Shown here: piece after piece, positions 38,201-64,000 of the stretch
Numbering within the stretch: position 1 is the stretch's first letter
How the letters are laid out: each line of letters begins with the position of its first letter
Source: Antedon mediterranea
Taxonomy: Eukaryota > Animalia > Echinodermata
Direction: 5' to 3'
Assembly: GCF_964355755.1 (NCBI RefSeq)
Contig: NC_092680.1
Coordinates: 12,471,045-12,535,044 of the forward strand
DNA length: 64,000 bases
Made by a program: the position numbers and the translations under genes
Notes under the pieces: generated by a model
Seen by the model: only the letters and a program-made list of their open reading frames with translations
Database searches by the model: none
What the model was told of the DNA's origin: nothing

Positions 38201-41200
38201 GTCACAGAAATACAATATATTATGCGAACAAAATAGGTTTTTTGCTTAAAATACACCCTTTTTGCTTAAAATAATAATTGTACGATATATTGTGCTGTTC
38301 GTATCCGGATATTCACCCCCTGGACATTTACCCCCGGAAAATTACCCCCCGGACAACCACCACCTGGACAACTACCCCCTTAGGACAACTACCTCTTTAG
38401 GACAACTACCCCCCGGACAAATACCCCCCGGACAAATATCCCCCGGACAACTACCCCCTTATGACAACAGCCCCCTTAGGACAACTATCCCCCGGACAAT
38501 TATCCCCTAGGAACAATTACCCCCCGGACAATTACCCCCCGGGTAATTACCCTGCGGACAACTACCTCTGAGACAATACTCCCCGTAGGACTCCTGGACC
38601 TGGACAATACTCCGAGGGCAAATAATCTTTTAGGACAACTACCTCCGTAGGACAACTACCCCCGGACAATACTCCGAGGGCAAATAATCTTTTAGGACAA
38701 CTACCTCCGTAGGACAACTAACCCCTGGACAACTACCCCCGGACAATTACCCCTAGGAACAATTACCCCCCCCCCCCCCCGGGTAATTACCCCGCGGACA
38801 ACTACCTCTGAAACAATACTCCCCGTAGGACTCCTGGACCTGGACAATACTCCGAGGGCAAATAATCTTTTAGGACAACTACCTCCGTAGGACAACTAAC
38901 CCCTGGACAACTACCCCCGGACAATACTCCGAGGGCAAATAATCTTTTAGGACAACTACCTCCGTAGGACAACTAACCCCTGGACAACTACCCCCGGTAA
39001 TTACCCCGCGGACAACTACCTCTGACACAATACTCCCCGTAGGACAACTACCTCCTGGACCTGGACAATACTCCGAGGGCAAATAATCTTTTAGGACAAC
39101 TACCTCCGTAGGACAACTAACCCCTGGGCAACTACCACCCAGACAACTATCCCTTTAGAACAACTACCCCCCGGACGGACAACTACCACCCAGACCATTC
39201 AACAACCTGACTCTGCAACAGTGTATAATAGGAATTAATAACTATATTTTAATTCGTTACTTTGACGAATTACTATTCATTATTGTAAACAAAAGTAAAA
39301 GATTGAACATAAATATAGCCTGGTGTCAGGTCTCTGGTCTCGGGTCTCTAGTTTCGAAACACCCGTTAAAAACAGATGATTTCATTTTTACAGAAACCGG
39401 TCCTATATATTTGTCTACTTTTGGATTGGGGGGGGGGGGGTAGTTGACCGGGGGTAGTTGACCGGGGGTAGTTACCCGGGGGGTAGTTATCCTAAGGGGG
39501 TACTTGTCCGGGTGGTTGTTATCCTAAGGGGGTAGTTGTCCTAAGGGGGTAGTTGTCCGGGGAGTAGTTGTCCTAAGGGGGTAGTTGTCCTAAGGGGGTA
39601 GTTGTCCTAAGGGGGTAGTTGTCCGGGTGGTAAATATCCGGGGGGTGACTGTCTAGGGGGTAGGTGTCCTAGAACCTGTGCTGTTCGTTATTTTATTATT
39701 TATTTATATTTAAAGGCAAAAACAACTTTGTGATTTTTTTTTCTGCTGAAAATATTGCAATTTTTCGTGTGCATTCTACCTTACCAGAAAGCCTAAAATA
39801 ATGTAATATTGGTGTAACTCTACCCTGGCCGATTCTATATGTAGGCCTAATTATTGAAAAAGGGAAAAATATATATAATACTGACGTCTTTAGGAACTGA
39901 AAAAGTAGGCCTACCATATAATAATTTTCCTTCATTGATACATTGTTATGCTAATTAACAAATACATTTTTTATTTTAAATACTTACCATCCCTATTTTT
40001 ACAGGGGTCCCAAGTCTACCGCTATTCGCGGTAGTCTACCGCTTTTAGTACCCATCTACCGCGCTACCGCTATCTCGACGTTTTCTACCGCATTTTGATT
40101 TTTTTACCGCATTTTCAAATTTCCCCATATTTTTGGCCAAATTGATTTACGGTAATACACCCAGCCTCAGCCCAGGTCAACAATAGTCAATAACCAGACA
40201 AAAGTGTGTTTCACGTTTCGTGAATGGTAGAATATAACAATAAAGATACGGACTAAATAACTCGTGTTACTCGGTAGCCATATTTATTCAGGTCAAGAAC
40301 ATAGCGCCCTCAGTCGGGACACGATACTGTGACATCCTTCCTTTTTTATAATAAGTTACGGTGTGCGCTTTTATGAATTTTTTTTTATATACTTATTTGT
40401 CATTTAGTGTGATGAATATAATAAAATATAGTATATCAATTAGTATCAGTGTTACTGTTTAGACTTCATATCTCTTGTGAGTGAATTATTATAAATACAG
40501 TATTATCATGAGTAACTTTAACACAACTTTAACTTTAACTTCTTTAACATAACGTTTAACTTTAACTTTTTTTTTTTAACATAACGTTTACTTGCAACAA
40601 TTTAAAAAATGGTTTGTAACATAGTTCCAGTCTGCTTTTATTGATTAATTAGTTATAGCAGCTAAGATATGAATTTGTTTTTATTTATGAGTTACATAAT
40701 CTTTTAGATAGATAGGTTGTTTTTTTATTCTGGTTGATCTGCGTGGTTGAGTTGGTTCCGTCATTGGTCTGTGTGATGTAGTTTGTTTGGTTGTTGGTAT
40801 TGGTTGCGTTGTGACCTCCTGCTGTTCAGTTGGTATTGTTGCATTATCATCTGCTGTTGCCATTGGTGTGTAGAGTTGAGTTGTATCAGGGGGTGATTCA
40901 GGTGTTTTCCTAATATGTACTCTGTTTCTTCTATATGTACCTGTTGGTGTGTCTATCTCATATGATCTTTCATCTAGTCTTTTTACAACTACTCCTTTTT
41001 GCCATTCTTTTTGACCTAATCGGTGTGGTTTTAGTCTTACCGTATCACCTTCAACCAGTTCTGGTAGGTCATGTGCATGTTTATTGTATTTAGATACTTG
41101 TTTCTCCTTGTTGGCTTTTATCTGTAGCTTGTCCAACTGTAGATACTCTTTTCCTCTGGGTGTTAGTAATGTGTCAGTCATTGGTAACATTGATCTTGTG

Positions 41201-44200
41201 CGTCTGTTGAAAAGTCTCTGTGTAGGACTAGTTCCTGTTCCTTGAGTAGGTGTGTTTCGAACTTCAAGTAATGCCATATATGGGTCAGTTTTGCTTTTCT
41301 TACACTTCATCAACATAGTCTTTGCTGCTTTTACAGCTGCCTCTGCTTTACCATTAGCATTAGGATGATGTGGAGATGAGGTTTGATGTTGGAAATCCCA
41401 ATTTGCACTGAAGTTTCTGAACTCTTGACTTGCAAATTGGGGGCCGTTATCCGAAATAACAATTTCAGGAATCCCGTTTCTCGCAAAGTGTTGCTTTACT
41501 TTCTTTATGACTGATTTAGTTGTTGTTTCAGTTAGTTTGTCAACTTCCCAAAATCCACTGTAGTAGTCCACTGTGGTCATGTAATCTACCTTATCAAGTG
41601 TGAATAGGTCAATTCCAACTTTGTGGTAAGGATATTTGGCTTCAATAGGAATCATAGTTTCCTTTGTCTGTGCCTGTTGATACGTTTGACAAGCATCGCA
41701 CATTTGTGTCATTTGTTTTATTTCATATGACATTCCGGGCCAAAAAATACATTCCCTTGCTCTTCTCAGCATACTATCTCCTCCAAGGTGGGAAACATGC
41801 AGACGTTCCTTTATTGATTTTCGTGATGAGATAGGTACTACTACTCGTTCACCTTTGAATACAAGTCCATCATGCACTGCCAGTTCATCTCTGAATGAAT
41901 AATAAGGCATAATCTGCGTTGGTACAAACTGTTTTTCATCTGGCCATCCTTGCATAATTATGGATTTCAGTATTTTTGTAGTTTCATCCATGTTTGTTTC
42001 TCTTTTAAGTTCATCAATTCGCTCTGGGCCAATACGAAGACCACCAACTGCATTTACTTGATCAAATTTGTCTACCTTGTCAGTATTTGGTAGATATGCC
42101 CTAGATAAAGTGTCGGCGATATACATTTCTTTGCCTCTTGTGTATACTATCTTTGTATCGTACTGTAACAGTCTCATCAGCATGCCTTGCAGTCGCTTTG
42201 GAGCTTTGTGTAAAGGCTTTCTCACAATCATTTCAAGAGGTTTGTGATCACTGTTGATAATAGTCAAACGTCCAAATGTATACTGATGAAATCTCTCCAT
42301 TGCAAAAACAATTGCGAGGCACTCCTTCTCTATTTGAGCATATCTTACTTCTGTAGCTGATAGAGATCTGCTAGCGTATGCAATTGGCTTTCCTTCTTGT
42401 AATAAAGCTTCTCCAAGTCCTGTGCTTGAGGCGTCACATTGTACTATTAACTCCTTCTTTGGATCATAATAGACTAGAATAGGAGCTTTAGTGATTAGTT
42501 GTTTCAAATTAAGCATTGCTTTATCTTGGTCATCTGATCAGTGCCACTGACAATCTTGATGAGTCAGTCGACGAAGTGGTTCAACAACAGTTGCTAGCTG
42601 AGGTAGGAACTTTGCTAGGTAATTTGTTAATCCTAGCATTCTACGAACACCTTCAACATCTGTTGGATTATCCATTTTGAGGATTGCTTCTAGCTTTTTC
42701 ACGTCAGGTTTTAATCCATTAGCAGTTATGGTATGTCCCATGAAATCAATTGTGTCAGTATGAAATACACTCTTCTCTTTATTTAGTTGTATTCCAGCTT
42801 TCTGACATTTTTCAAAAAGGTTTCTCAAACTTTTGTCATGTTTTTCAGTTGTATTACCATAGACAAGTATGTCATCTGCTACGCATGCTACTCCTTCTAA
42901 CCCTGTCAATGATTCATTTAACTTCCTTTGGAAAATTTCTGAGCTCACTTTCAAACCAAAGGGTAATCTATTCCAGCGAAATCTTCCAAACGGACAGATA
43001 AACGTAGTCAGACGGCTGCTGTTTTCGTCCAATTCACAGTGCCAGTATCCATGTGACAGATCAACCTTGCTAAATACCTTTGCATTGGCTAGTTCTGGTA
43101 GAATATCCTCCATGGTTGGTAGTGGATATCTCTCACGCTGCAGAACTTCATTCAGCGGTCTCGGATCTACGCATATTCTTAGTTTACCATTTTTTTTGGT
43201 TTGTATAGATATCTGTGAACACCAGTCTGTTGGTTCAGATACTGGCGTTATAACACCTTCTGTTAGTAGTTTGTCTAGTTCCTCTTTTAACTTGGGCTTC
43301 ACGGATATAGGTACTCTTCGAGCTGGACATTGCGTTCCTTTTGAGTGCTCGGCAATCTTTATACAAACTTTTCCTGGTAGACGTCCCAGTTTACCATTAA
43401 AAACTGTTTTGTAGTCTTCAAGGATCTTGGATGTTGTCTGTGTGACACTATGTAATTGCTTGAAGTTACTGTAGTTTACCGTGATCAGTTTCATTTTTTC
43501 TGCTGTCTCTCTGCTTAATAGTGGTTGTAAATCTTGTTTGACAATTTGAAAATCAACTGTATATGACTTGTTTGTGGCGTCATTTTTAAGCGTTAGCACA
43601 CATTTTCCTAATGGGATGACTTTGCTCTTGTTATACATTGTTAACTTTGTGTGTGATTGTTCAATTTTGGTACTACCTAGTTCAACATATTTTACTGGTA
43701 TCACGTTTACAGTAGCTCCGCTGTCCACTTGGAATCGTATTTTACTTCCATCATTCATGGTCATTTCCGCATATATTGGTCCTGTTGAAACATTGTAAAT
43801 TTTGTCTTCAGTTACACTCAATGTACTATCATCTGAATCTTGTGCTTCAACACCATATAGCTTGGGTTTCCGTTTGCATACAATAGCGAAATGGTTCATT
43901 AATTTGCATTTGTTGCACCGTTTACCCCAGGCAGGGCACATTTCTTTCTTTCTTGGGTGGCTGTTTCTACAATATTTGCATTTAGGCATGTTGCCAGACG
44001 GTGCTCTGTCACTAGTTTTATGTTTTCCTGATGACTGAGGGGTTTCATGTTTCTGCTTATGTCCACCTCTGTTCATCACTTTATGAACTTCTTCTTCCTC
44101 CAATGATTTACCAGAAATCACTTTCATTTGGTTGTATGTGTTTTCATAGCTGTGGCAGATGTCAATACATTTCTTTAAATCTATTTTTCTTTCTTGGAAT

Positions 44201-47200
44201 AGTCGTTTTCTTACTCTTTCATCATGCACACCCAGTACTAAACGATCTCGAATTAGACCATCTTTCATGCAATCACAGAAATTACAGGTTTTTCTGAGTA
44301 TTTTCAAAGCATTTATATATGTGTCAATTGACTCGCCTTTTTCTTGTTTTCGGGAATTGAATTTATATCGTTCAAAAATTTCATTGGTTTCACCAAGGAT
44401 AAACGTATCCAATTTTTGTATGATTTCCTCACACGTGTCAGATTCTAGTGGGTCACATCCATTATATATTTGGAGTGCATCAACACCCATGGTAGAGATC
44501 AGTAATGATTTCTTAAAATGAGGTGATCGTGATGGATGATCTAGGTTGCTAGCAATGGTATAATGTGTCCAAAGCTGCTTCCATAATTTCCAATTTTCCT
44601 GTTTACCATTTGTGTCTAGTTTTACCGGTTCTGGGGGTTTAACATTGAACATCGGGACAGGCATTTGTATCGTCGGCAGTCCGTTGCCGTTAGCTTCATC
44701 CTGCAGGCCATGTGCGTCATTTTGCACGCCCTCCTCGCCGTCTGCCATGCTGGCTAGGCTAGTCGTATCTATCTCGTGAGATTTAACAGTAAATATCTTA
44801 CTTTACTTATCTGTGTTTCAGTGTGCAATTCAGACTAATCTTTTCTTGCAATGAGCACCGCTGCCACCATGTTTCACGTTTCGTGAATGGTAGAATATAA
44901 CAATAAAGATACGGACTAAATAACTCGTGTTACTCGGTAGCCATATTTATTCAGGTCAAGAACATAGCGCCCTCAGTCGGGACACGATACTGTGACAAAG
45001 TGAGGCAGGATGTTGAAACAATGTCTATTCATGCAGTCTCCGTGGGTCTATTATTGTATTTTTATTTGTATGCACTGCCTTTGTTAAACCGTAACAATAA
45101 TATAAACATGCACGCTACTACACGCAGGACGTAGAAAAAAAAGAAGCGTGCAACCAACCGTGAATCAATCACGTGCTAACCGGAATACGCGATTATCAAT
45201 TTTGGGAGGATCCAAGTTTTAACTAAATAAACGCTTTGATTACAAAGTGGTTGAGACACGTTTTTAATAGTTATTACATTTTTAAACACCCTCATAATTA
45301 ATGAACTCTACCAATGTTGATCCGCTGCAAAGAACAACAGATCGCACATCGCACGAGGTTGTTGAGGCGGTGTTTTATTTGGTTTTACTGTACGATCCGA
45401 TAATACGAACATGTTAAATGATTTAAAAGGCATGGATTCGCCAAGCAAGTAGGCCTACGTTTAATAAAAATAAAAAAAAAGATTTTCGTAAGCTCTTTTG
45501 TTCAAACTTGTTATTTATTATATAGCAATAATCCACCCGTTCCGGCATGCACGCTAGGCCTCTAGCCTAGCTAGGCCTACTCCTCGATCGATCGATGTCG
45601 CTGGTGGGGAATTTCCCAGCGATAAGAAATCGGCGAAATAGCTCATAAACGGCCTACATTTTAATGTTATATCTTTAATGCCAGTGTAATTACGTATGGA
45701 TAAAACAATATAAAACTCAATGTTTTTCATCTGAAATAATATGTTAACTCGCGTAATGTAGCATAAGACGGATTCGGAATAGTTATTTCGATTGTTTTGG
45801 GGTTTTAAAATGGTAGCTAGCTAGGGCCTAGCTAGAAGTAGAAGCCCTAGGCTAGGCCTAGGCCTGTGCCTAAAAAAAATGAGTAAATTCTATTGGGCAA
45901 TACTATCATGTGTTTATTGTACATTATGTAATTAAGTTAAATTATTTTATATACTGAATATTAGTTAAAATACAGTATATATTTTTTACATTTTTTGTAC
46001 TGAGGATGTGTCCATAAAAAAAATATTAGAATGTAAAAATACTGATGTATAAACCTATGTAAAAATTAAGCCAACTTATGTGTAAATATTGTATATACTG
46101 TATATGTAACATATTTAGTTAATTAAGAGACGTAAACGACACGCGTGTTGATTTTCGATTCCCCGCGTGTTGATTTTCGATTCCCCGCGCGTTGACTTTC
46201 GACGCCCCGATGAATTGAATGTGGTTCACGACAAAATCTCCTGCGAATAGACTTTCCCAAGTTGGGACCTCTGTTTTTACGCCAACATAACAATGTAAGG
46301 CCTATTTGTACGTACAGTCTACAAGGCGGAAATGCAGTCATTTTAAAAAGAAAAATAATTGTTAGGCCCTAATTTTTAAAATAATAAATGATAATCTAAT
46401 AATAGCCACAAAGAAAATATAACACTGGACTACATTCAAAATTAAATAAATTGTGTGTAAATTCGGATTATTATGTTTTTATATTAGATTTGTCGATATG
46501 TTCCAGTATTTTAACATTTAAACCATTAGTCAGTTAAGTTCCACGTGTGCGCTTGCAATAGTGATTTGATTGACAGCACCGGGGTGATCGATGTAGTGTA
46601 AATGGGCGCAACTCGAGTTCATCTCGCAGTTTTTTTGGCTAGTGTAAATGGAAATTGCCTCCGAGTTCAACTCGTGTTCCTCTCTCAGTCGATAGTGTAA
46701 AAAGGGTATTTACACGTGGTGTACCGCAAACTTTTTATCAACAAAAGAAATAAAAAGAATTAAAGTAACAAAATGCCAAGGACACACGCTGAACTATTGT
46801 ATCATTTGAAAACAATTATATTTAGCAAGAGATTATGGATTTAAATACGCCATTTTGACAGCACTGATATGTTTTCTTTCCAACAGAAACGGGTCCACAT
46901 AGAAAGAACAGATTTTAAATCCGGTTTTACAAAAACCGTTGATTCGGGTTTTAGAACAGTTTTTCTTTTAGCAAAGGTGATCTCAAGAAAACTTGAGAAG
47001 GGCGCAGGATTGGTCGAATGGACAAGAACAGTTAAGAGCATGTCGATATAACAGCATTAAAAATAAGCAATAGCAACGTAGGCCTCCTACAGCATAGAAG
47101 CAATGAATAAAACAGCTAGCAGTGCTAAAAAGGGGCATCATAGCTGCGTTAAAGCTTAAGCCAAACATAAGCTATGCAAAAAAGGGGAAAGATAAGAGCT

Positions 47201-49857: not shown

Positions 49858-50770
49858 TAATGCAGAATGTTCTTGCTACCAACGACTATCGTGTCAATGT
49901 TTAAATATTGGATTTTTACGTGCAAATCGGAGCGTAAAAAACCCTCTTTGCCTGTTTTCCTGTCGACGTTGAAATACGTTGAGTTGCGTTGAGTTTAAAA
50001 TCGTTAAAGTTGAAAATAAAATAGCGATGACGATGGACCGCTAATATTTACACATTTTTACGCGATCGTTCATAGTTTCTTGGTTCTCTCGAGCGTTGCT
50101 GGGACACGCGGACGTGAAGTGTTGCAAAACTAAAGGCCGGTGCACACCAAACGCGAAGCCGCGAATTTCGCGTTAAAAAGTGACGCACGCGGCAGGCGAC
50201 GGACGCTTCCAGTATGAACATAAAAGCGAACAGTGTACGATAGCAAAGAATATATATAACAAGAATGAGTAATCCGCGATTTTCCCTGTAACAGTAATAT
50301 TGTCCATGTGGTAGGGCGCCGCCATAAGTGAGGATGTATCTGGGATGTATACAACTGTTTGTGACGGTTTCACTAATCAAAAGCTGGACCACCGGTAGTA
50401 TTTTCATGATAAAAAATGTTATCAACTACATGCCAACATCATGTTAAATGCTATTTGGATATTTAATTGTTCGTTTTATGCAATTTATTTTGTAAAAACT
50501 GCCGTATAAACAGTTCGCTTTATCAACCGGGCGCTACGATAGCGTGACCGGGCGTGTTGGTGTTTACGCGTTTTCACGAAGGATAGTTTAATAATATTCC
50601 TATATTTAACTTGTTTCTGGTAAAACAAATAAATGTTAATGACATTTAACATTTTATCCTATAAATAACATGTACTTTATACTAATTTATATCATAAAAA
50701 CAATACTTAATTTACCGGGCGTAGAGTAGTACGCGGCAATAGTAGTAATAGTGATACTTCAGACCCGACC

Positions 50771-51312
50771 TTGGTGTATTTCCTGATTACGTAATATCCG
50801 CCAGGTGTTTCTAATGAAGGTCGTTCATTTCCTGGTACTTCAGCCCAAGGTTGGCTTTGGTGTATTTCCTGGTAGTTACGTAATAGTTATATAATTTCCG
50901 CCAGGTGTTTCTAATGAAGGTCGTTCATTTCCTGGTACTTCAGCCCAAGGTTGGCCTTGGTGTATTTCCTGGTAGTTACGTAATAGTTATATAATTTCCA
51001 CCAGATGTTTCTAATGAAGGTCGTTCATTTCCTGGTACTTCAGCCCAAGGTTGGCCTTGGTGTATTTCCTGGTAGTTACGTAATAGTTATATAATTTCCG
51101 CCAGGTGTTTCTAATGAAGGTCGTTCATTTCCTGGTACTTCAGCCCAAGGTTGGCCTTGGTGTATTTCCTGGTAGTTACGTAATAGTTATATAATTTCCA
51201 CCAGATGTTTCTAATGAAGGTCGTTCATTTCCTGGTACTTCAGCCCAAAGTTGGCCTTGGTGTATTTCCTGGTAGTTTCGCAATAGATATGTAATTTCCG
51301 CCAGGTGTTTCT
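50771..51312. repeat. Exact 100-bp tandem array (about 5.4 units) at the outer end of the palindrome arm
   Basis: CCAG(G/A)TGTTTCT recurs at 50801, 50901, 51001, 51101, 51201 and 51301. Mirrored from about 63788 to the window end. Confidence 0.95.
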
Positions 51313-51481
51313 TTGTCTCTTATTTATTAATTTTTGGCGCGATGTTCTGGTACGTGGTGAGTGACGTCATTACTTTATTTACGATTTAAGACGGTGAAAC
51401 AAAGTGAAGCGGCTATTGCTGTACTATTTTCCAGTTGTTTTGCCTATCTTTGCGTAGAGTATCTCTTTACAGTATTTCATT

Positions 51482-52036
51482 ATGTCTGGAAGTATATATT
51501 TTTCGCAAGGGAGTTGTGTAGATACTGTTATAATAATTAGCGATGATGAGGATACTGTTGTTGTTCCAGGCAGTGATATAGATGATCGTTACACGGCGGC
51601 CGAAGAGGTTATCCCCGCCGGTATAGATGAAGGAGTCGAGAGGAGTAACAGGCCTACAAGTTGTATATTTACGTACGTGGACGAGGTGGAGAGAGAATTT
51701 TTGTTGAAAATGGAGCGTTTGGTTAAACAATTGTTTGCTGCTCAAGTGTTAGCCAAGTGTTGGGTTTTAAGTAAAGCGGCTTGTTATGGTTGTGAATTTG
51801 ACAGGAGCAGTCAAAAAGATCATGATTTCTGTTGTATGAAGTCTCTAGAAGAACAGATTGACTATTTTTATCGGGAGGTTCTGGATAAGAAGTATGTTTC
51901 AGTCGATACCGTTTACAACGAACTAAATATGCAAGGAGAATATTCATTGCCTCGGTATAGACATTTCGTTTATTTTCTTGTCAATACCCTGATTAATTCA
52001 GAGGCTATTTTTAAGCTGTTGTGCGAGGATATTTAA
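51482..52036 (+). CDS. Uncharacterised 184-aa intronless protein with CxxC-x6-SQ-x2-H-x2-C motif and SIM-like VIIISDDED
   Basis: ATG-to-stop ORF of 555 nt in AT-rich DNA. CYGCEFDRSSQKDHDFCC at 51782-51835. Acidic N-terminus. Confidence 0.75.
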   Translation: MSGSIYFSQGSCVDTVIIISDDEDTVVVPGSDIDDRYTAAEEVIPAGIDEGVERSNRPTSCIFTYVDEVEREFLLKMERLVKQLFAAQVLAKCWVLSKAACYGCEFDRSSQKDHDFCCMKSLEEQIDYFYREVLDKKYVSVDTVYNELNMQGEYSLPRYRHFVYFLVNTLINSEAIFKLLCEDI

Positions 52037-52198
52037 ATTGTGTTTGATCGCACGTGTCACGGAAACGATTGACCGGAAATAACAATCATTATCTTTTTAA
52101 TTACTGTACTGGGCTACTTCCCTACTGAGCTGCATATACATCCTGATTCAAGCGTAATCGTTCGTTTCACTCTCTGTAACTCTCTACAGTCTATAAAC

Positions 52199-54030
52199 AT
52201 GAGTTTCAACTGTTTACCTACTCCGAAATTGGCAATTGGTGAGAAAGCCCGTAGGACTATGAAAAGAGTTATGGGGAGTTCTAATGGTCAAACTGACGAG
52301 TGTAGCAGTTTAAAATTACCAACGATGGCTTCTACATCAGCGAATATAATGGATTCTATAAAATCTTTTAACGGTCAAACAGATGAGTGTAAAGGTTTGA
52401 GTAAAGCCTTAGGAATGAGCGCCCGAGATTTTGCCGTAATGACCGATGGTGTACCAAAGATTTCCATAACTTCAAAGAATCGGATTTTCTTGTCTAAAAA
52501 ACGCCATGTAGTGGCCCAACGATGGGGTGACGATGTTTATGTTTGTCTCAGAGAGTATTACCAAACGGAAGAATATGGTGCCTTCAAACCTGGACCTCTA
52601 GGTATTAATTTACCCGTTCTGCTGTGGCAAAAACTTTTCAACAATATTGATTTAATTATTCAGGCACTGGAAGACTTACAAAGAGACATTAACATGGTGG
52701 AGGCAGTAAGAATCCCACTTTCGGACATAATTCATGTGGTAGTTAGTAACTGGAAAGAAGAACAATTTGTGTGTATTCGCCGCTATTACCAGTCTGAAGA
52801 AGGAGGCAAGTTTAAACCCGGTAAAAAAGGTGTAAACCTTCCAAAGAGTCAGTGGTTCAAGATAATTGAAAAACACTGTGAAATACAAAAGATGATTGAG
52901 GAGGTTAGTAATGATAATGCGGCTACTGTTGACAAAAGCGATAATGGAGGACGTTTATTCAATTCAGAACATCAATTGCTACCCCCTGATAAGTTATCGG
53001 TGCAAAAGATAATAGGGGAAAATTTAGACTGTGATTACCTTCAACTTCTTGATAAAGGAGCAGCCGATACATTGTTTAAAAAATGTGAGGAAGAGATTGA
53101 CTATTTTACCGGTGATCTTGCAAAGGTGAAAGTGTATGGAAAGTGGTTTAATATTCCTAGAAAACAGGTTAGTTCCATTATATTTTTATCCGTGGTTTTG
53201 TATTAATGACTTGTTAATTACTTGTATATCGTTTCCTTTGTTTTTCTTTATTTACCGCTGTGTAGCTATAGGTGTAATTTACTCTTTTACTGTAAATTAT
53301 TTTATTTAGGCGTGTTCATTTACATCTCGCCAAATAATAAATGACTTTCTTTGTATGGTTTCCTCTCTGCAGGTTTCGTTTGGCGATTCGGGCTTAACTT
53401 ACAAATATTCAGGCAATACAGTACCAGCTTTACCATGGCCACCATTCCTGAAAGATCTCCGCGACCTTTTAAAATCGGTTACAGGACATTACTTCAATTT
53501 TGTTTTGGTCAACCGGTAAATATTCTTGTTTATTATTTTATTTATTTATTTATTTTTTTATTGATTAAAAGGGTCTATAGTTTACCTCTAAAACGATTGA
53601 ACATTATCAGTATTCATACTGGATGATTTCTGCAATTTGTTAGATAAGATTGTTTTAATGGATAATTGGGGTTTTTTTTAGTCTCATCTTAAAATATCTT
53701 ATTTTCTATTGTATTTTGTCGTTACTCTATAGATATGCTACTGGAAGTGATTACATTGGCGAACACAAAGATGATGAGAAAGACATGGATCACTTTAGTC
53801 CAATCGCCTCTGTATCATTGGGGCAAACACGTATGTTTAGATTTCGACATGGTGATGCGCGAGGTAAGAGTCCCAAAAGAATCATTGAGCCAGTAACTGT
53901 TGATCTTAAACACGGTACATTATTAATGATGAATTATCCCACTAATGAGTACTGGTACCATTCACTGCCTAAAAATCAATCCATCAAGCTACCAAGAATA
54001 AATCTCACGTTTAGAGATATTAAAAGATGA
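52199..54030 (+). CDS. Tandem PC4 (Sub1/p15) domains fused to ALKBH2-type Fe(II)/2OG DNA demethylase, 469 aa, 3 exons
   Basis: Exons 52199-53167, 53373-53515 and 53733-54030 (GT-AG, phases 0 and 2). PC4 repeats at aa about 95-157 and 171-233 (VCLREYY...FKPGPLGINL; VCIRRYY...FKPGKKGVNL...QW). AlkB part reads LDCDY...EIDYFTGDLAKVKVYGKWFNIPRKQ/VSFGDSGLTYKYSG...FNFVLVNR/YATGSDYIGEHKDDE...YWYHSLP...RINLTFR, with HxD...H and RxxxxxR intact. Confidence 0.92.
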
Positions 54031-57000
54031 GAGAAATGTTACGCAAACATTACAGTCTTTAATAGTGATTGCAGATCTCAAGAATATCAACTGTTCATGA
54101 TCTGTTCTCATTTAGTATAGTAGTACCAGTTGAATTATTTTTGTGATGATATTCCTACAAATGGTTGTATTATTGTATTGAAGTTAATTCACTTAGATCT
54201 TGGCCTAATTCCATTGATCGTTAATAATCATGTGATTGTTTGTCATTGTGTGGATAATGATTAACTTTACGAATAATTTCTTAAAAGTAACTTGTAATGT
54301 ATTTCTAATTGTTAAATACAATTTTTTATGTTTTTAATAAGTGTGTAAGTTTTTCTTTAAAGCATTTTAATCGTAATTTCAAGAGTAATATGTACTTGTA
54401 ACGTTTGAAACGGACTGGTAGATTAAACAAAAAAAAACAAAAACAACAAAAACAAAACACGTTATAATAACACTAATAATAGCACATATTTTCGTACATG
54501 TATCAATGATTTATCTACATATGTGTGATTAATATTATTACAATAAAGACCATGTACATCTACGATATTTTTACTGTAAGTGGTATTGTAAATAAAAATT
54601 ATGAATTCAATCGTGAGATAAGACCGATATCTGTGTATTATTTTATATTACTTTTATCATAATTGCAACAACAAAAAAACTCAGAGAAATCATAATTATC
54701 GAATACAGAAAGACGTTTTGGTTACCAATTGTATTTCTTGACACTTAATACATTTTAACAGAAAACAAGACCTTCAACCGGAGCCAAAAATGGAAATTTG
54801 TTTACGTGCAGGTTATTGCCATTAGATATTCTTAGAACTACTTTGGTTTATAAATATTGTCACTTTTTTTCTACACGTTTATCTACCGAGATTTTGTTTT
54901 CCTTTTTATGAATCTTCCGTTGTTCATAAGCATTATTAATTTTTACAGGCCTTGTTCTTCGCTTTGCAGGCTAAATCTTATAACGGCATAGGCCTACATT
55001 TTAACGGTTCTTTGTAAATATCCTCTTATTGATTGTTACCTTTAGTTCTCTGAATGTTTTAATTTACCGTAGATGATGAAAAAATCCCTTAATCTAGCAC
55101 CATTTAAAAAAAAAAAAAAAGGTTCCGCAGTAAATGGTTTATTTTTGATGGTATTGATGGAATCATCGAGGCACAATATTAGGCTGAAAAACATGACGTC
55201 ACTATTTTAAACGGTTTATCATAACAAGAACAATTAACCAATCACAAAACTGAGCTACTGATTTGCGTAGAAGTTTCTGGAAATGACAAATTAAGGAAAC
55301 ACGTACACATTAATAAATATATATTAATTTTTATATAAATAATAGACAAAACAAAAGGAAATACACCAAACAAATCATTTTTGTTATGAATTTATAATAA
55401 CTTTAAATTTTGTCCATCACAGGAGACGCGTTTAGCGTTTTCCAATTGTAAAACAGTTTCGCATTGCGTCGCAACACATGCACATACTGCAAGTACCGTA
55501 CCGTACTGTAACAAGTCTACTGATATGTATTTTGTTGGTCACTCATCATTTTAGCCAACACATTATTTAACTCATCAGGTGTAATATCTTTTCACAAATC
55601 CTTTATATCTTTACTTTTTCTTGACAACTCATAACAAACAAGAATAGTACTCTGAATGAGTGTGGGAGAGGTGTGTGAGAGTCCCATTCAACTAAACCTT
55701 GCCAATTTGTACTCGACCTACGATAAAACCATTTTTTTAAAGTCAACATAGCGACGCGAGAAAAAATTGATAATAGGGATAAAAAGTTTTTCTTGCATTG
55801 TTATACAGTAATCTATGTTTTTCGGTGTTTACACCATCTCATTGTTTATAATTACGTTTGTTAATATCGATAGTGTTTCTCTAGCAGAGTTATATTACTT
55901 GTTTATACTCGTATAGTTTGAAGTCCTCCATGTTGTTCGTATATTTTGTAAAAAGTGTACTTATGATTACTTTTAAAAACCAACTCATTTTATTTGCATT
56001 TTATCTACACCTCATGGTTAAAATGTGTTGTTTTTCATAGAGTGTGATGATGCTTAAAACGTTATACTAGTATAACCACCAAAACGGTTTATTATCTGTA
56101 GGAAATCATCAATTGTAACATGCGGTAAACAATACAAATTAGTTTCACAAATTATTAAAAAATAGCACAATTGTTACAAATGAATTTAAGAAAATAAAGG
56201 TGTACAGATTTTATTTCGAAAAAGTGTAGGCCTATACCTACAAAGATAATTTTACATAAAGTGTACAGAATAAATTAACAAAAAAAGGTCACACATACAT
56301 TAAACTAATTCTTATAAAAGTGTACAGTGTACTTTGGTTATCAGGTATATCAACTTTAGTATTTTAAGTATAGGGCCTATTTGTGGCAAACACACGGTCC
56401 CTTTTAATTGTGGGTAGAGGCCTTTTGCCGTTCGTAATTCAAACTGTTCGTAAAATTGAAGTTAATATTCTGAGATTAGGCCTATAGCCTATGATCGCAG
56501 CTTATACTAGTCAACGGTCTAAAAGAGTTGTATTGCAGGATGTGAAACATAAAAGTTCATTAATAAACAGTATATTATAACGATAAAGAAACGAATGTAC
56601 GATACACCAATATAGCAATACAATAACTGATTAACTGAAAACTTGAAGTCTACTGTATTCCTACAATCATTCAAGTAGACATTGTTTGCTGAGTGTATGG
56701 TACTTTCTCCAAAGAGAATTCGAACGATGGGCTTTCGGACGTGTTTCTACGGTTATCAGAACGGGTCGATAATGAAAAAAAAACAAAAACAAAACAAACA
56801 AACTGCCTACTAACTCCCAAAAAAATCAATACCTATAAATAAGCTGAACCTACCCCACTAAATAATCTCTTCCATACATCAAAATCGACCGAAAATGATC
56901 TGGACATTGAAAAATGGACACGGTCGTCTGTTCTTCTTTTCTGTTTCCACGGCTTGGGACGACATCCCTGTTAGTGATGTACGGTAGCCATGCGGTCTAC

Positions 57001-57412
57001 ACACTTATGATGACCACATCGCATAACATGTTCAGGGAACTTATTTTTCAACTCTCTGATACAATGTTTAAATACAAGTAGACTGGAAACCATTTAGGAA
57101 CAGGGGTTTCTAATAATAAAAGTTGTTTAAAACTTTAGTTATTGTCAAGGGGAATTGTTCAAGACTTGGAGTAAAAATGGTCAAGACCGGAGGAAAATGG
57201 TCAAGACCGGGGAAAATGGTCAAGACCGAAAGAAAATTAAATTTCACCATTTTATAAGTTTATAGTCATTTATTGTGTTAAAATTCATTTATTATTAGAC
57301 CTGTATACGTATTCAATAACAAAAAATAACTTTGTTACATTAATAACATATCTTTAGTGGTTAAGGTAATATATTATTTCTCTGTATACTGACGTCACAA
57401 ATATAGATAAAG

Positions 57413-57708
57413 AGAGACTGTAACTAAATGTTTATTACTTATTAGGGTTACAGGGAGAGTTCCATGCAGCATTAAAAGGTCAATTAATGAGCCACCCAAC
57501 TTAATTAAGTACCGGTACTTAACAAATGTGCTCAAACTCAATAAGGGTTACAAATCTACAAGAGACTGTAACTAAATGTTTATTACTTATTAGGGTTACA
57601 GGGAGAGTTCCATGCAACATTAAAAGGTCAATTAATGAGCCACCCAACTTAATTAAGTACCGGTACTTAACAAATGTGCTCAAACTCAATAAGGGTTACA
57701 AATCTACA
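57413..57708. repeat. Two tandem 148-bp copies in the palindrome spacer
   Basis: AGAGACTGTAACTAAATG...GGGTTACAAATCTACA at 57413-57560 and 57561-57708. One visible mismatch (GCAGC vs GCAAC). Confidence 0.95.
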
Positions 57709-60700
57709 AAAGAGGACATTTTATTTTTAAACCAGGGTTAAACATTAAAAGGTCAATTACTTGAACTCTGAACATGGGAAAAATACTTGTGTCAATTGAC
57801 ACTTGAACTTGACATCTATACAAGGACGAATAGACTGTGACAATTAACCATGACCTCTGGTCAGCCGTTTTCACAGTTGACCATTTTCCCCGGTCTTGAC
57901 CATTTTCCTCCGGTCTTGACCATTTTTACTCCAAGTCTTGAACAATTCCCCTTGACAATAACTAAAGTTTTAAACAACTTTTATTATTAGAAACCCCTGT
58001 TCCTAAATGGTTTCCAGTCTACTTGTATTTAAACATTGTATCAGAGAGTTGAAAAATAAGTTCCCTGAACATGTTATGCGATGTGGTCATCATAAGTGTG
58101 TAGACCGCATGGCTACCGTACATCACTAACAGGGATGTCGTCCCAAGCCGTGGAAACAGAAAAGAAGAACAGACGACCGTGTCCATTTTTCAATGTCCAG
58201 ATCATTTTCGGTCGATTTTGATGTATGGAAGAGATTATTTAGTGGGGTAGGTTCAGCTTATTTATAGGTATTGATTTTTTTGGGAGTTAGTAGGCAGTTT
58301 GTTTGTTTTGTTTTTGTTTTTTTTTCATTATCGACCCGTTCTGATAACCGTAGAAACACGTCCGAAAGCCCATCGTTCGAATTCTCTTTGGAGAAAGTAC
58401 CATACACTCAGCAAACAATGTCTACTTGAATGATTGTAGGAATACAGTAGACTTCAAGTTTTCAGTTAATCAGTTATTGTATTGCTATATTGGTGTATCG
58501 TACATTCGTTTCTTTATCGTTATAATATACTGTTTATTAATGAACTTTTATGTTTCACATCCTGCAATACAACTCTTTTAGACCGTTGACTAGTATAAGC
58601 TGCGATCATAGGCTATAGGCCTAATCTCAGAATATTAACTTCAATTTTACGAACAGTTTGAATTACGAACGGCAAAAGGCCTCTACCCACAATTAAAAGG
58701 GACCGTGTGTTTGCCACAAATAGGCCCTATACTTAAAATACTAAAGTTGATATACCTGATAACCAAAGTACACTGTACACTTTTATAAGAATTAGTTTAA
58801 TGTATGTGTGACCTTTTTTTGTTAATTTATTCTGTACACTTTATGTAAAATTATCTTTGTAGGTATAGGCCTACACTTTTTCGAAATAAAATCTGTACAC
58901 CTTTATTTTCTTAAATTCATTTGTAACAATTGTGCTATTTTTTAATAATTTGTGAAACTAATTTGTATTGTTTACCGCATGTTACAATTGATGATTTCCT
59001 ACAGATAATAAACCGTTTTGGTGGTTATACTAGTATAACGTTTTAAGCATCATCACACTCTATGAAAAACAACACATTTTAACCATGAGGTGTAGATAAA
59101 ATGCAAATAAAATGAGTTGGTTTTTAAAAGTAATCATAAGTACACTTTTTACAAAATATACGAACAACATGGAGGACTTCAAACTATACGAGTATAAACA
59201 AGTAATATAACTCTGCTAGAGAAACACTATCGATATTAACAAACGTAATTATAAACAATGAGATGGTGTAAACACCGAAAAACATAGATTACTGTATAAC
59301 AATGCAAGAAAAACTTTTTATCCCTATTATCAATTTTTTCTCGCGTCGCTATGTTGACTTTAAAAAAATGGTTTTATCGTAGGTCGAGTACAAATTGGCA
59401 AGGTTTAGTTGAATGGGACTCTCACACACCTCTCCCACACTCATTCAGAGTACTATTCTTGTTTGTTATGAGTTGTCAAGAAAAAGTAAAGATATAAAGG
59501 ATTTGTGAAAAGATATTACACCTGATGAGTTAAATAATGTGTTGGCTAAAATGATGAGTGACCAACAAAATACATATCAGTAGACTTGTTACAGTACGGT
59601 ACGGTACTTGCAGTATGTGCATGTGTTGCGACGCAATGCGAAACTGTTTTACAATTGGAAAACGCTAAACGCGTCTCCTGTGATGGACAAAATTTAAAGT
59701 TATTATAAATTCATAACAAAAATGATTTGTTTGGTGTATTTCCTTTTGTTTTGTCTATTATTTATATAAAAATTAATATATATTTATTAATGTGTACGTG
59801 TTTCCTTAATTTGTCATTTCCAGAAACTTCTACGCAAATCAGTAGCTCAGTTTTGTGATTGGTTAATTGTTCTTGTTATGATAAACCGTTTAAAATAGTG
59901 ACGTCATGTTTTTCAGCCTAATATTGTGCCTCGATGATTCCATCAATACCATCAAAAATAAACCATTTACTGCGGAACCTTTTTTTTTTTTTTTAAATGG
60001 TGCTAGATTAAGGGATTTTTTCATCATCTACGGTAAATTAAAACATTCAGAGAACTAAAGGTAACAATCAATAAGAGGATATTTACAAAGAACCGTTAAA
60101 ATGTAGGCCTATGCCGTTATAAGATTTAGCCTGCAAAGCGAAGAACAAGGCCTGTAAAAATTAATAATGCTTATGAACAACGGAAGATTCATAAAAAGGA
60201 AAACAAAATCTCGGTAGATAAACGTGTAGAAAAAAAGTGACAATATTTATAAACCAAAGTAGTTCTAAGAATATCTAATGGCAATAACCTGCACGTAAAC
60301 AAATTTCCATTTTTGGCTCCGGTTGAAGGTCTTGTTTTCTGTTAAAATGTATTAAGTGTCAAGAAATACAATTGGTAACCAAAACGTCTTTCTGTATTCG
60401 ATAATTATGATTTCTCTGAGTTTTTTTGTTGTTGCAATTATGATAAAAGTAATATAAAATAATACACAGATATCGGTCTTATCTCACGATTGAATTCATA
60501 ATTTTTATTTACAATACCACTTACAGTAAAAATATCGTAGATGTACATGGTCTTTATTGTAATAATATTAATCACACATATGTAGATAAATCATTGATAC
60601 ATGTACGAAAATATGTGCTATTATTAGTGTTATTATAACGTGTTTTGTTTTTGTTGTTTTTGTTTTTTTTTGTTTAATCTACCAGTCCGTTTCAAACGTT

Positions 60701-61069
60701 ACAAGTACATATTACTCTTGAAATTACGATTAAAATGCTTTAAAGAAAAACTTACACACTTATTAAAAACATAAAAAATTGTATTTAACAATTAGAAATA
60801 CATTACAAGTTACTTTTAAGAAATTATTCGTAAAGTTAATCATTATCCACACAATGACAAACAATCACATGATTATTAACGATCAATGGAATTAGGCCAA
60901 GATCTAAGTGAATTAACTTCAATACAATAATACAACCATTTGTAGGAATATCATCACAAAAATAATTCAACTGGTACTACTATACTAAATGAGAACAGAT
61001 CATGAACAGTTGATATTCTTGAGATCTGCAATCACTATTAAAGACTGTAATGTTTGCGTAACATTTCTC

Positions 61070-62901
61070 TCATCTTTTAATATCTCTAAACGTGAGATTT
61101 ATTCTTGGTAGCTTGATGGATTGATTTTTAGGCAGTGAATGGTACCAGTACTCATTAGTGGGATAATTCATCATTAATAATGTACCGTGTTTAAGATCAA
61201 CAGTTACTGGCTCAATGATTCTTTTGGGACTCTTACCTCGCGCATCACCATGTCGAAATCTAAACATACGTGTTTGCCCCAATGATACAGAGGCGATTGG
61301 ACTAAAGTGATCCATGTCTTTCTCATCATCTTTGTGTTCGCCAATGTAATCACTTCCAGTAGCATATCTATAGAGTAACGACAAAATACAATAGAAAATA
61401 AGATATTTTAAGATGAGACTAAAAAAAACCCCAATTATCCATTAAAACAATCTTATCTAACAAATTGCAGAAATCATCCAGTATGAATACTGATAATGTT
61501 CAATCGTTTTAGAGGTAAACTATAGACCCTTTTAATCAATAAAAAAATAAATAAATAAATAAAATAATAAACAAGAATATTTACCGGTTGACCAAAACAA
61601 AATTGAAGTAATGTCCTGTAACCGATTTTAAAAGGTCGCGGAGATCTTTCAGGAATGGTGGCCATGGTAAAGCTGGTACTGTATTGCCTGAATATTTGTA
61701 AGTTAAGCCCGAATCGCCAAACGAAACCTGCAGAGAGGAAACCATACAAAGAAAGTCATTTATTATTTGGCGAGATGTAAATGAACACGCCTAAATAAAA
61801 TAATTTACAGTAAAAGAGTAAATTACACCTATAGCTACACAGCGGTAAATAAAGAAAAACAAAGGAAACGATATACAAGTAATTAACAAGTCATTAATAC
61901 AAAACCACGGATAAAAATATAATGGAACTAACCTGTTTTCTAGGAATATTAAACCACTTTCCATACACTTTCACCTTTGCAAGATCACCGGTAAAATAGT
62001 CAATCTCTTCCTCACATTTTTTAAACAATGTATCGGCTGCTCCTTTATCAAGAAGTTGAAGGTAATCACAGTCTAAATTTTCCCCTATTATCTTTTGCAC
62101 CGATAACTTATCAGGGGGTAGCAATTGATGTTCTGAATTGAATAAACGTCCTCCATTATCGCTTTTGTCAACAGTAGCCGCATTATCATTACTAACCTCC
62201 TCAATCATCTTTTGTATTTCACAGTGTTTTTCAATTATCTTGAACCACTGACTCTTTGGAAGGTTTACACCTTTTTTACCGGGTTTAAACTTGCCTCCTT
62301 CTTCAGACTGGTAATAGCGGCGAATACACACAAATTGTTCTTCTTTCCAGTTACTAACTACCACATGAATTATGTCCGAAAGTGGGATTCTTACTGCCTC
62401 CACCATGTTAATGTCTCTTTGTAAGTCTTCCAGTGCCTGAATAATTAAATCAATATTGTTGAAAAGTTTTTGCCACAGCAGAACGGGTAAATTAATACCT
62501 AGAGGTCCAGGTTTGAAGGCACCATATTCTTCCGTTTGGTAATACTCTCTGAGACAAACATAAACATCGTCACCCCATCGTTGGGCCACTACATGGCGTT
62601 TTTTAGACAAGAAAATCCGATTCTTTGAAGTTATGGAAATCTTTGGTACACCATCGGTCATTACGGCAAAATCTCGGGCGCTCATTCCTAAGGCTTTACT
62701 CAAACCTTTACACTCATCTGTTTGACCGTTAAAAGATTTTATAGAATCCATTATATTCGCTGATGTAGAAGCCATCGTTGGTAATTTTAAACTGCTACAC
62801 TCGTCAGTTTGACCATTAGAACTCCCCATAACTCTTTTCATAGTCCTACGGGCTTTCTCACCAATTGCCAATTTCGGAGTAGGTAAACAGTTGAAACTCA
62901 T
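61070..62901 (-). CDS. Mirror copy of the PC4-PC4-ALKBH2 fusion gene
   Basis: Exons 62901-61933, 61727-61585 and 61367-61070. ORF translations are identical to the left-arm copy. Confidence 0.9.
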
Positions 62902-63063
62902 GTTTATAGACTGTAGAGAGTTACAGAGAGTGAAACGAACGATTACGCTTGAATCAGGATGTATATGCAGCTCAGTAGGGAAGTAGCCCAGTACAGTAAT
63001 TAAAAAGATAATGATTGTTATTTCCGGTCAATCGTTTCCGTGACACGTGCGATCAAACACAAT

Positions 63064-63618
63064 TTAAATATCCTCGCACAACAGCTTAAAAATAGCCTCT
63101 GAATTAATCAGGGTATTGACAAGAAAATAAACGAAATGTCTATACCGAGGCAATGAATATTCTCCTTGCATATTTAGTTCGTTGTAAACGGTATCGACTG
63201 AAACATACTTCTTATCCAGAACCTCCCGATAAAAATAGTCAATCTGTTCTTCTAGAGACTTCATACAACAGAAATCATGATCTTTTTGACTGCTCCTGTC
63301 AAATTCACAACCATAACAAGCCGCTTTACTTAAAACCCAACACTTGGCTAACACTTGAGCAGCAAACAATTGTTTAACCAAACGCTCCATTTTCAACAAA
63401 AATTCTCTCTCCACCTCGTCCACGTACGTAAATATACAACTTGTAGGCCTGTTACTCCTCTCGACTCCTTCATCTATACCGGCGGGGATAACCTCTTCGG
63501 CCGCCGTGTAACGATCATCTATATCACTGCCTGGAACAACAACAGTATCCTCATCATCGCTAATTATTATAACAGTATCTACACAACTCCCTTGCGAAAA
63601 ATATATACTTCCAGACAT
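63064..63618 (-). CDS. Mirror copy of the 184-aa Cys/His-motif protein
   Basis: Translation identical to 51482-52036. Confidence 0.75.
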   Translation of the reverse strand: MSGSIYFSQGSCVDTVIIISDDEDTVVVPGSDIDDRYTAAEEVIPAGIDEGVERSNRPTSCIFTYVDEVEREFLLKMERLVKQLFAAQVLAKCWVLSKAACYGCEFDRSSQKDHDFCCMKSLEEQIDYFYREVLDKKYVSVDTVYNELNMQGEYSLPRYRHFVYFLVNTLINSEAIFKLLCEDI

Positions 63619-64000
63619 AATGAAATACTGTAAAGAGATACTCTACGCAAAGATAGGCAAAACAACTGGAAAATAGTACAGCAATAGCCGCTTCACTTTG
63701 TTTCACCGTCTTAAATCGTAAATAAAGTAATGACGTCACTCACCACGTACCAGAACATCGCGCCAAAAATTAATAAATAAGAGACAAAGAAACACCTGGC
63801 GGAAATTACATATCTATTGCGAAACTACCAGGAAATACACCAAGGCCAACTTTGGGCTGAAGTACCAGGAAATGAACGACCTTCATTAGAAACATCTGGT
63901 GGAAATTATATAACTATTACGTAACTACCAGGAAATACACCAAGGCCAACCTTGGGCTGAAGTACCAGGAAATGAACGACCTTCATTAGAAACACCTGGC

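Follow-up and report, generated by a model that had tools for sequence, protein, structure and literature searches.

Antedon mediterranea, a crinoid, encodes a protein in which two PC4-type repeats are joined in one reading frame to a complete ALKBH2-type DNA-repair enzyme; the gene lies on contig NC_092680.1, in a stretch of 64,000 nucleotides that was analyzed as a whole and is referred to here as the window. The fusion is real and lineage-restricted, and it is best read as a novel form of accessory cargo in a Maverick-type element. The explanation that we favor, to which we assign a probability of about 0.5, is that a Maverick/Polinton element captured a host ALKBH2, which was joined in frame downstream of a MOSUB-like, PC4-type gene of the element, that the PC4 pair would function as a single-chain dimer binding displaced single strands, that a predicted flexible linker would hold ALKBH2 at the displaced strand, and that the tethered enzyme would reverse 1-methyladenine and 3-methylcytosine during the strand-displacement copying of the element. 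Protein-primed copying displaces a single strand, and both of these modified bases stall polymerases and arise more readily where bases are unpaired. A polymerase of the protein-primed type is encoded by Mavericks (PMC6431247). The repair role is a plausible prediction only, in which the fusion would be kept for the repair of element DNA.

The reading frame is directly observed. Splicing of the three GT-AG exons (Table 1) yields 1410 nt that translate into 469 amino acids with no internal stop codons, as stated in the initial annotation of this DNA, and residues 81-469 are identical, letter for letter, to the RefSeq protein P0014 of A. mediterranea. The domains that had been recognized by eye were recovered with the profiles that had been suggested for the purpose: exon 1 contains two stretches matching the PC4 family (PF02229, E = 6.3e-24, 83.7 bits against a cut-off of 25), exon 3 matches 2OG-FeII_Oxy_2 (PF13532, E = 1.2e-19) and exon 2 matches it weakly (E = 0.012), and in P0014 both families score above their cut-offs. 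The PC4-to-AlkB junction (about residue 250) is inside exon 1, so that the fusion is a continuous frame, independent of splicing or gene modeling. The exon boundaries are derived from splice motifs, the RefSeq models and an intron position common with the host gene; run X5, the type of which was guessed to be RNA, resembles the other runs in covering introns and intergenic DNA, and of its 33 joints, the 15 listed include none that falls at an intron, which is uninformative with regard to expression. The start codon is uncertain, with the RefSeq model of the window copy beginning at Met81, the paralogs P0009, P0013, P0016 and P0017 beginning at Met1, and full-length paralogs spanning 460-473 amino acids. 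P0014 has two accessions on one contig, which matches the presence of a second identical gene copy in the window.

Table 1. Features of the window (feature, positions, strand, remarks)
LINE-type pieces	19386-20517 and 23841-26221	-	Endonuclease match in a 565-aa frame; RT-like frames by eye
NXPE-family gene pieces	35291-37745	-	Neurexophilin and NXPE4_C matches; likely host neighbor
G/C-rich tandem arrays, inverted pairs	498-767 / 1840-2103 and 38315-39171 / 39436-39632		15-17-bp units; pairs look like termini of a non-autonomous DNA transposon
LTR-retrotransposon-type region	40681-44802	-	RT, RNase H and integrase; two abutting ORFs split by a stop
Left boundary, starts AGTAGT	50741-50746	+	Maverick-type end motif; contig comparison of four runs
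Subterminal tandem array	50792-51312	+	100-bp unit, 5.2 copies; other runs have related units, shorter and at high depth
Left arm of inverted duplication	51100-57223	+	Portion with mirror in the window
ORF A	51482-52036	+	184 aa, no family; CxxC..SQ..H..C motif
Exon 1	52199-53167	+	N-terminal extension (aa 1-88), both PC4 repeats, linker, start of ALKBH2
PC4 repeat 1	about 52463-52687	+	Within exon 1
PC4 repeat 2	about 52688-52906	+	Within exon 1
ALKBH2, initial portion	from about 52952	+	Within exon 1, after the linker
Intron 1	53168-53372	+	GT-AG, phase 0; acceptor at the rejoining point of two host ALKBH2 isoforms
Exon 2	53373-53515	+	Nucleotide-recognition lid region of ALKBH2
Intron 2	53516-53732	+	GT-AG, phase 2
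Exon 3	53733-54030	+	Catalytic core of ALKBH2: HxD..H iron ligands, two 2OG arginines; stop codon
Repeated stretch	57114-57421		308 bp; tandemly repeated in three other runs
Non-mirrored spacer	57224-57876	.	653 bp, between arms; 148-bp tandem pair
Right arm of inverted duplication	57877-64000	-	Runs off the window; second fusion gene and second ORF A
Second fusion gene	61070-62901	-	Identical copy, in right arm
Second ORF A	63064-63618	-	In right arm

The two PC4 repeats show 43% identity to each other over 69 amino acids and match the PC4/Sub1 fold, each superposing at about 1.2 A on the C-terminal domain of PC4/Sub1 (PDB 1PCF, 4USG, 4BHM; rmsd 1.1-1.3 for single repeats on human PC4 in the structure search). 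The model of the pair (pLDDT 91.5, pTM 0.85, from a 65-row alignment in which tandem PC4 proteins abound) folds as one unit, so that the single-chain pseudo-dimer proposed in the initial annotation gains support as a prediction. Among solved structures, the best match spanning both repeats is to Pur-alpha (Z 11.0, rmsd 3.7, 129 aligned positions), where repeats I-II (3K44, 8CHT) are likewise packed in one chain; the dimeric ssDNA-channel arrangement is a prediction from the pTM of 0.85 and the two-repeat matches to Pur-alpha and MOSUB. The fusion differs from PC4/Sub1 in being a single chain rather than a homodimer, in having an enzyme attached and in the loss, in repeat 1, of two basic residues of the KPG(R/K)KG loop. 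Aromatic residues occupy both base-stacking positions in both repeats; for W89, this role appears in the title of 4USG. The longer model of residues 81-469 (389 aa; pLDDT 84.8, pTM 0.62) contains a low-confidence linker and is consistent with two units joined by a predicted flexible tether.

Among viral proteins, the best structural match of the pair is MOSUB of the Branchiostoma lancelet adintovirus (A0A5H3CIS2; E = 3.8e-8, TM 0.74, 170 columns), followed at a distance by a match with E = 1.4e-4 and TM 0.38. The similarity to MOSUB spans the whole tandem PC4 fold, with only 21% identity. Its top viral rank may reflect the scarcity of tandem PC4 proteins in the library, and algal tandem PC4 proteins outscore it by sequence. 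MOSUB also resembles the fusion in its position near an element end, in a map row beside an ITR in Supplementary Figure S2 of PMC8502044. Unlike the fusion, MOSUB has 203 amino acids and no AlkB domain, and it belongs to an element with core genes, whereas the window copy has none. The tandem arrangement itself is not new but common: 132 of the 148 non-Antedon PC4-like representatives (drawn from the top 150 of 210 matches) have 2-4 repeats, and MOSUB matches the whole pair. The multi-repeat proteins, abundant among P0023-P0169, often contain DEK_C or Z-alpha domains, and two of those among the named top matches come from green algae.

The AlkB part is closest to ALKBH2 (E = 4e-72 to human ALKBH2 versus 7e-23 to ALKBH3) and is complete and catalytically intact, as originally claimed. 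The window protein has equivalents of the human iron triad (H171, D173, H236), of the 2OG residues N159, Y161, R248 and R254, and of R110 and Y122, and all nine of these catalytic and lid residue equivalents are kept in 12 of the 12 family members examined. The same iron, 2OG and lid residues are found in human ABH2 (PDB 3RZG/3BTX) and in the crinoid proteins XP_071945810 and XP_033113497, from which the fusion differs in having two PC4 domains in place of the N-terminal region and in being multi-copy. Human ABH2 acts more efficiently on duplexes, for which it uses F102, the RKK loop and the R198/G204/K205 long loop, which contacts the complementary strand (PMC12295762). The initial annotation needs a correction here: the enzyme is the duplex-preferring member of its family, and ssDNA targeting would be a changed preference, not the default. 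For the additional suggestion that the enzyme removes host-placed marks such as 6mA, no supporting observation was found.

The positions of F102, R110, Y122 and F124 are occupied in the fusion by Y, R, Y and Y, with the intercalating aromatic finger kept (Tyr stands in place of F102 in 42/113 and of F124 in 38/113 other ALKBH2), and the alignment to the human chains shows a long loop of the R198/G204/K205 type. The fusion lacks the RKK loop (R241-K243) of human ALKBH2, with basic residues at the three positions in none of the 12 family members. The three PC4-less crinoid proteins examined lack the RKK loop as well, so that its loss is not fusion-specific, which rules out the loss as an ssDNA adaptation peculiar to the fusion. 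The first Arg of this loop is present in 113 of the 113 non-crinoid ALKBH2 matches listed and in none of three PC4-less crinoid proteins (P0177, P0020, P0021).

The fusion gene belongs to a dispersed family of 17 distinct RefSeq models, listed under automatic names, on 7 chromosome-size contigs of 22-41 Mb. Seven of the 17, on 5 contigs, combine two PC4 repeats with a complete AlkB domain; most of the models are truncated, internally deleted or later-starting. The same species has separate PC4-less ALKBH2 genes, namely, one with a long N-terminus (XP_071945810-812, 77% identity over 223 aa) and a 268-aa pair, P0006/P0020 (XP_071944660, XP_071944657; 79% identity), and the ALKBH2 of Anneissia has no PC4 domain either. 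These PC4-less genes together with the multi-copy family rule out a standard single-copy ALKBH2 ortholog. In the domain-architecture searches, PF02229 is present on three AlkB-side matches, all from Antedon (best 120 of 382), and AlkB is present on none of the 148 non-Antedon PC4-side representatives (best 150 of 210); among the matches listed in both searches, the PC4 and AlkB combination appears only in Antedon. The Atlas produced only plain AlkB clusters (0.88), and the titles and abstract openings surveyed contained no PC4-AlkB fusion and no AlkB gene in a Maverick/Polinton. A sea-cucumber protein with the WW-PC4-PC4 architecture (P0088) exists.

Both halves of the fusion have identifiable relatives. 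Residues 1-250 resemble crinoid stand-alone PC4 proteins without AlkB (five Anneissia models, one of which is a tandem pair, and three metagenome proteins), with per-repeat identity of 41-51% to the seven stand-alone proteins on the tree versus 36-39% to canonical-looking PC4. In the PC4 domain tree (31 rows), both window repeats fall, together with these seven proteins, into a 14-row group (SH-aLRT 99) that includes two long-branch rows and is separate from the algal repeats and from canonical-looking PC4. Host SUB1 as the donor of the repeats is rejected on this tree, which is built from a short alignment and in which the comparison protein was judged canonical by eye. Outside the repeats, the N-terminal extension also resembles the stand-alone proteins, if weakly (pairwise E = 0.001-0.009), and a short motif after the last PC4 repeat is common with them, exactly where the similarity to ALKBH2 begins. 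Residues 248-469, in turn, are 77-79% identical to the PC4-less ALKBH2 of A. mediterranea and 75-77% identical to crinoid host genes. In the AlkB tree (24 domains, no ALKBH3), the 11 fusion-family rows form one clade (96/98) nested in the crinoid ALKBH2 clade (99/97); the nesting within Antedon is modestly supported (80/73 and 84/78), and the bootstrap is not fully settled.

Between the two host ALKBH2 isoforms there is a difference of 12 residues, after which their sequences come together again where intron 1 of the window gene lies. With intron 1 at the acceptor of both host isoforms, the sequences point to capture of the host ALKBH2 as genomic DNA and not by retrocopying, an origin that the introns rule out. 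The PC4-less pair P0006/P0020 is sister to the fusion clade (84/78), and its N-terminal 13 residues are similar to those with which a stand-alone crinoid PC4 protein begins (pairwise E = 1e-4); the pair may be another form carried by an element.

Carriage by a mobile element, as originally proposed, is supported by the sharp boundary within a repeat, the dispersal of the copies and the MOSUB-like fold. At the left boundary, 1.5 kb outside the start of the fusion gene, four of four runs show the high-depth repeat of the flank going on with different sequence beyond 50739-50744, and one contig of run X6, the first 30 letters of which are unaligned, starts matching at 50741; the position is ambiguous by 4 bases because a common variant of the flanking repeat continues with the same four letters. 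The element begins here with AGTAGT, one of the two Maverick end motifs, (AGT)2 or (AG)3, found at this one end; either motif begins at a fraction of 0.00055 of the window positions, and the match is a post hoc observation. (AGT)2 is the commonest end motif of vertebrate Mavericks, in which target-site duplications are 6 bp long, TIRs measure 46-1447 bp and the core lies between accessory regions (PMC8097293).

The remainder of the element is dominated by an inverted duplication, with 0 differences in 6124 bases between the arms, the full length of which is at least 6.1 kb; the right terminus is beyond the window. A symmetric element would extend 359 bases beyond the window and total 13.6 kb. 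The mirror arm might be an assembly artefact; the five near-identical same-contig pairs in the family (the two accessions of P0014, P0001/P0008, P0009/P0015, P0010/P0013 and P0006/P0020) hint that two-armed elements are common rather than assembly errors, these pairs being identical or one residue different. ORF A has no Pfam match, homologue or viral locus, and its Atlas matches reach only 0.83-0.84; it matches the sea-cucumber protein P0088 weakly (pairwise E = 0.004). The CxxC..SQ..H..C motif of ORF A occurs also at the tail of P0088 and is present in 1/148 PC4 representatives. The 3.2 kb between the fusion gene and the spacer contain no long ORFs.

No protein-primed DNA polymerase (pPolB), integrase or capsid gene was found within the element in the window, where ORF A and the fusion are the only frames of more than 100 amino acids in 50741-64000, and 34 selected short frames (5 of these outside or at the left edge) had no Pfam match better than E = 0.012. 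Autonomous Mavericks/Polintons have genes for PolB, integrase, ATPase, protease and capsid; this element, lacking any core gene, is likely a non-autonomous derivative that would need an autonomous helper. None of the fusion copies was seen beside a pPolB, integrase or capsid gene, the terminal pattern of the element is absent from metagenome contigs, and no viral or metagenome locus was found with PC4 queries. The one viral match (L001), of 23 residues on the strand opposite to a 370-aa ORF, was dismissed as chance. On this combined evidence, the carrier is probably a non-autonomous derivative of a Maverick/Polinton. It appears improbable that the copies were spread by another DNA transposon (of foldback, MULE or Ginger type) or by segmental duplications: the missing core genes and the arms that far exceed the reported vertebrate TIRs are compatible with such carriers, but the AGTAGT boundary, the MOSUB-like fold and the sharp insertion into another repeat are in better agreement with a Maverick.

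The most serious competitor of the favored explanation, although itself unlikely, is that the fusion is passenger cargo, that is, the product of a chance in-frame capture of ALKBH2 that multiplies with the element and is useless to it. The restriction of the fusion to one genus among the matches listed, the many partial copies and the near-identity of the AlkB domains, which fits a recent capture, are all expected in this case, and the PC4-less pair P0006/P0020 may represent capture without fusion. Between two fusion subfamilies, 199/203 residues of the AlkB domain are kept, compared with 65/75 and 60/73 in the PC4 repeats and 21/45 in the N-terminus, a pattern of sequence conservation that could result from purifying selection but also from recent capture or gene conversion. 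Against useless cargo stands the retention of all catalytic residues in every member examined; the AlkB part, which remains intact, is 16-24% diverged from the PC4-less genes and sits on a stem branch of 0.11. The differences among reads point in the same direction, with 3/3 synonymous in the AlkB exons versus 2/10 in the upstream part of exon 1 (13 sites listed; a weak signal).

An active fusion could, alternatively, benefit the host: its PC4 pair would keep an ALKBH2 of duplex type in place on the host chromosomes, at bubbles, forks or sites of transcription, and the element would only have delivered and amplified the gene. The retention of the duplex-binding finger and the long loop and the inability of the window copy to replicate on its own are compatible with such a role, which is nevertheless rather unlikely for an enzyme encoded by dispersed, often broken copies instead of one conserved locus, in a host that retains its own ALKBH2. 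Still less credence can be given to the possibility that the product is mostly a PC4-less ALKBH2 translated from an internal start near residue 232, or a PC4-only protein resulting from read-through of intron 1. RefSeq models P0008, P0011 and P0012 start at a Met near this residue and P0017 reads into intron 1, but these starts are automatic predictions, and the 250 codons upstream form an open frame that the subfamilies have conserved. The favored explanation, capture by a Maverick of an ALKBH2 that repairs the displaced strands of the element, can be taken further, to a Maverick lineage with its own replication-coupled repair enzyme, in which the PC4 part switches a duplex-preferring demethylase to displaced strands and palindromic, helper-dependent derivatives spread two gene copies each. 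This extended form is tentative, and the odds are somewhat against it.

Accessory cargo of host origin is known from other Mavericks. In nematode Mavericks, intron-containing, host-derived cargo adjoins the left TIR (bioRxiv 10.1101/2022.07.12.499685), and the wasp proteases and krma kinases found there resemble the Antedon gene in being host-like, intron-bearing and located near the left end; the difference is that the Antedon cargo is a DNA-repair enzyme joined to a domain that is likely element-encoded. As for non-autonomous Polintons, these are apparently absent in anole (PMC3014272).

The reach of these observations is limited to one genus so far, and the role of the fusion stands as a prediction. 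If the favored explanation is correct, the little-studied MOSUB/PC4 gene would gain a functional clue, as an ssDNA-binding module that receives host domains. The fusion would also make it possible to ask, with a natural protein, whether ALKBH2 can be switched from duplex to single-stranded substrates by tethering, and because both halves have close unfused crinoid relatives, such a test would need only three proteins.
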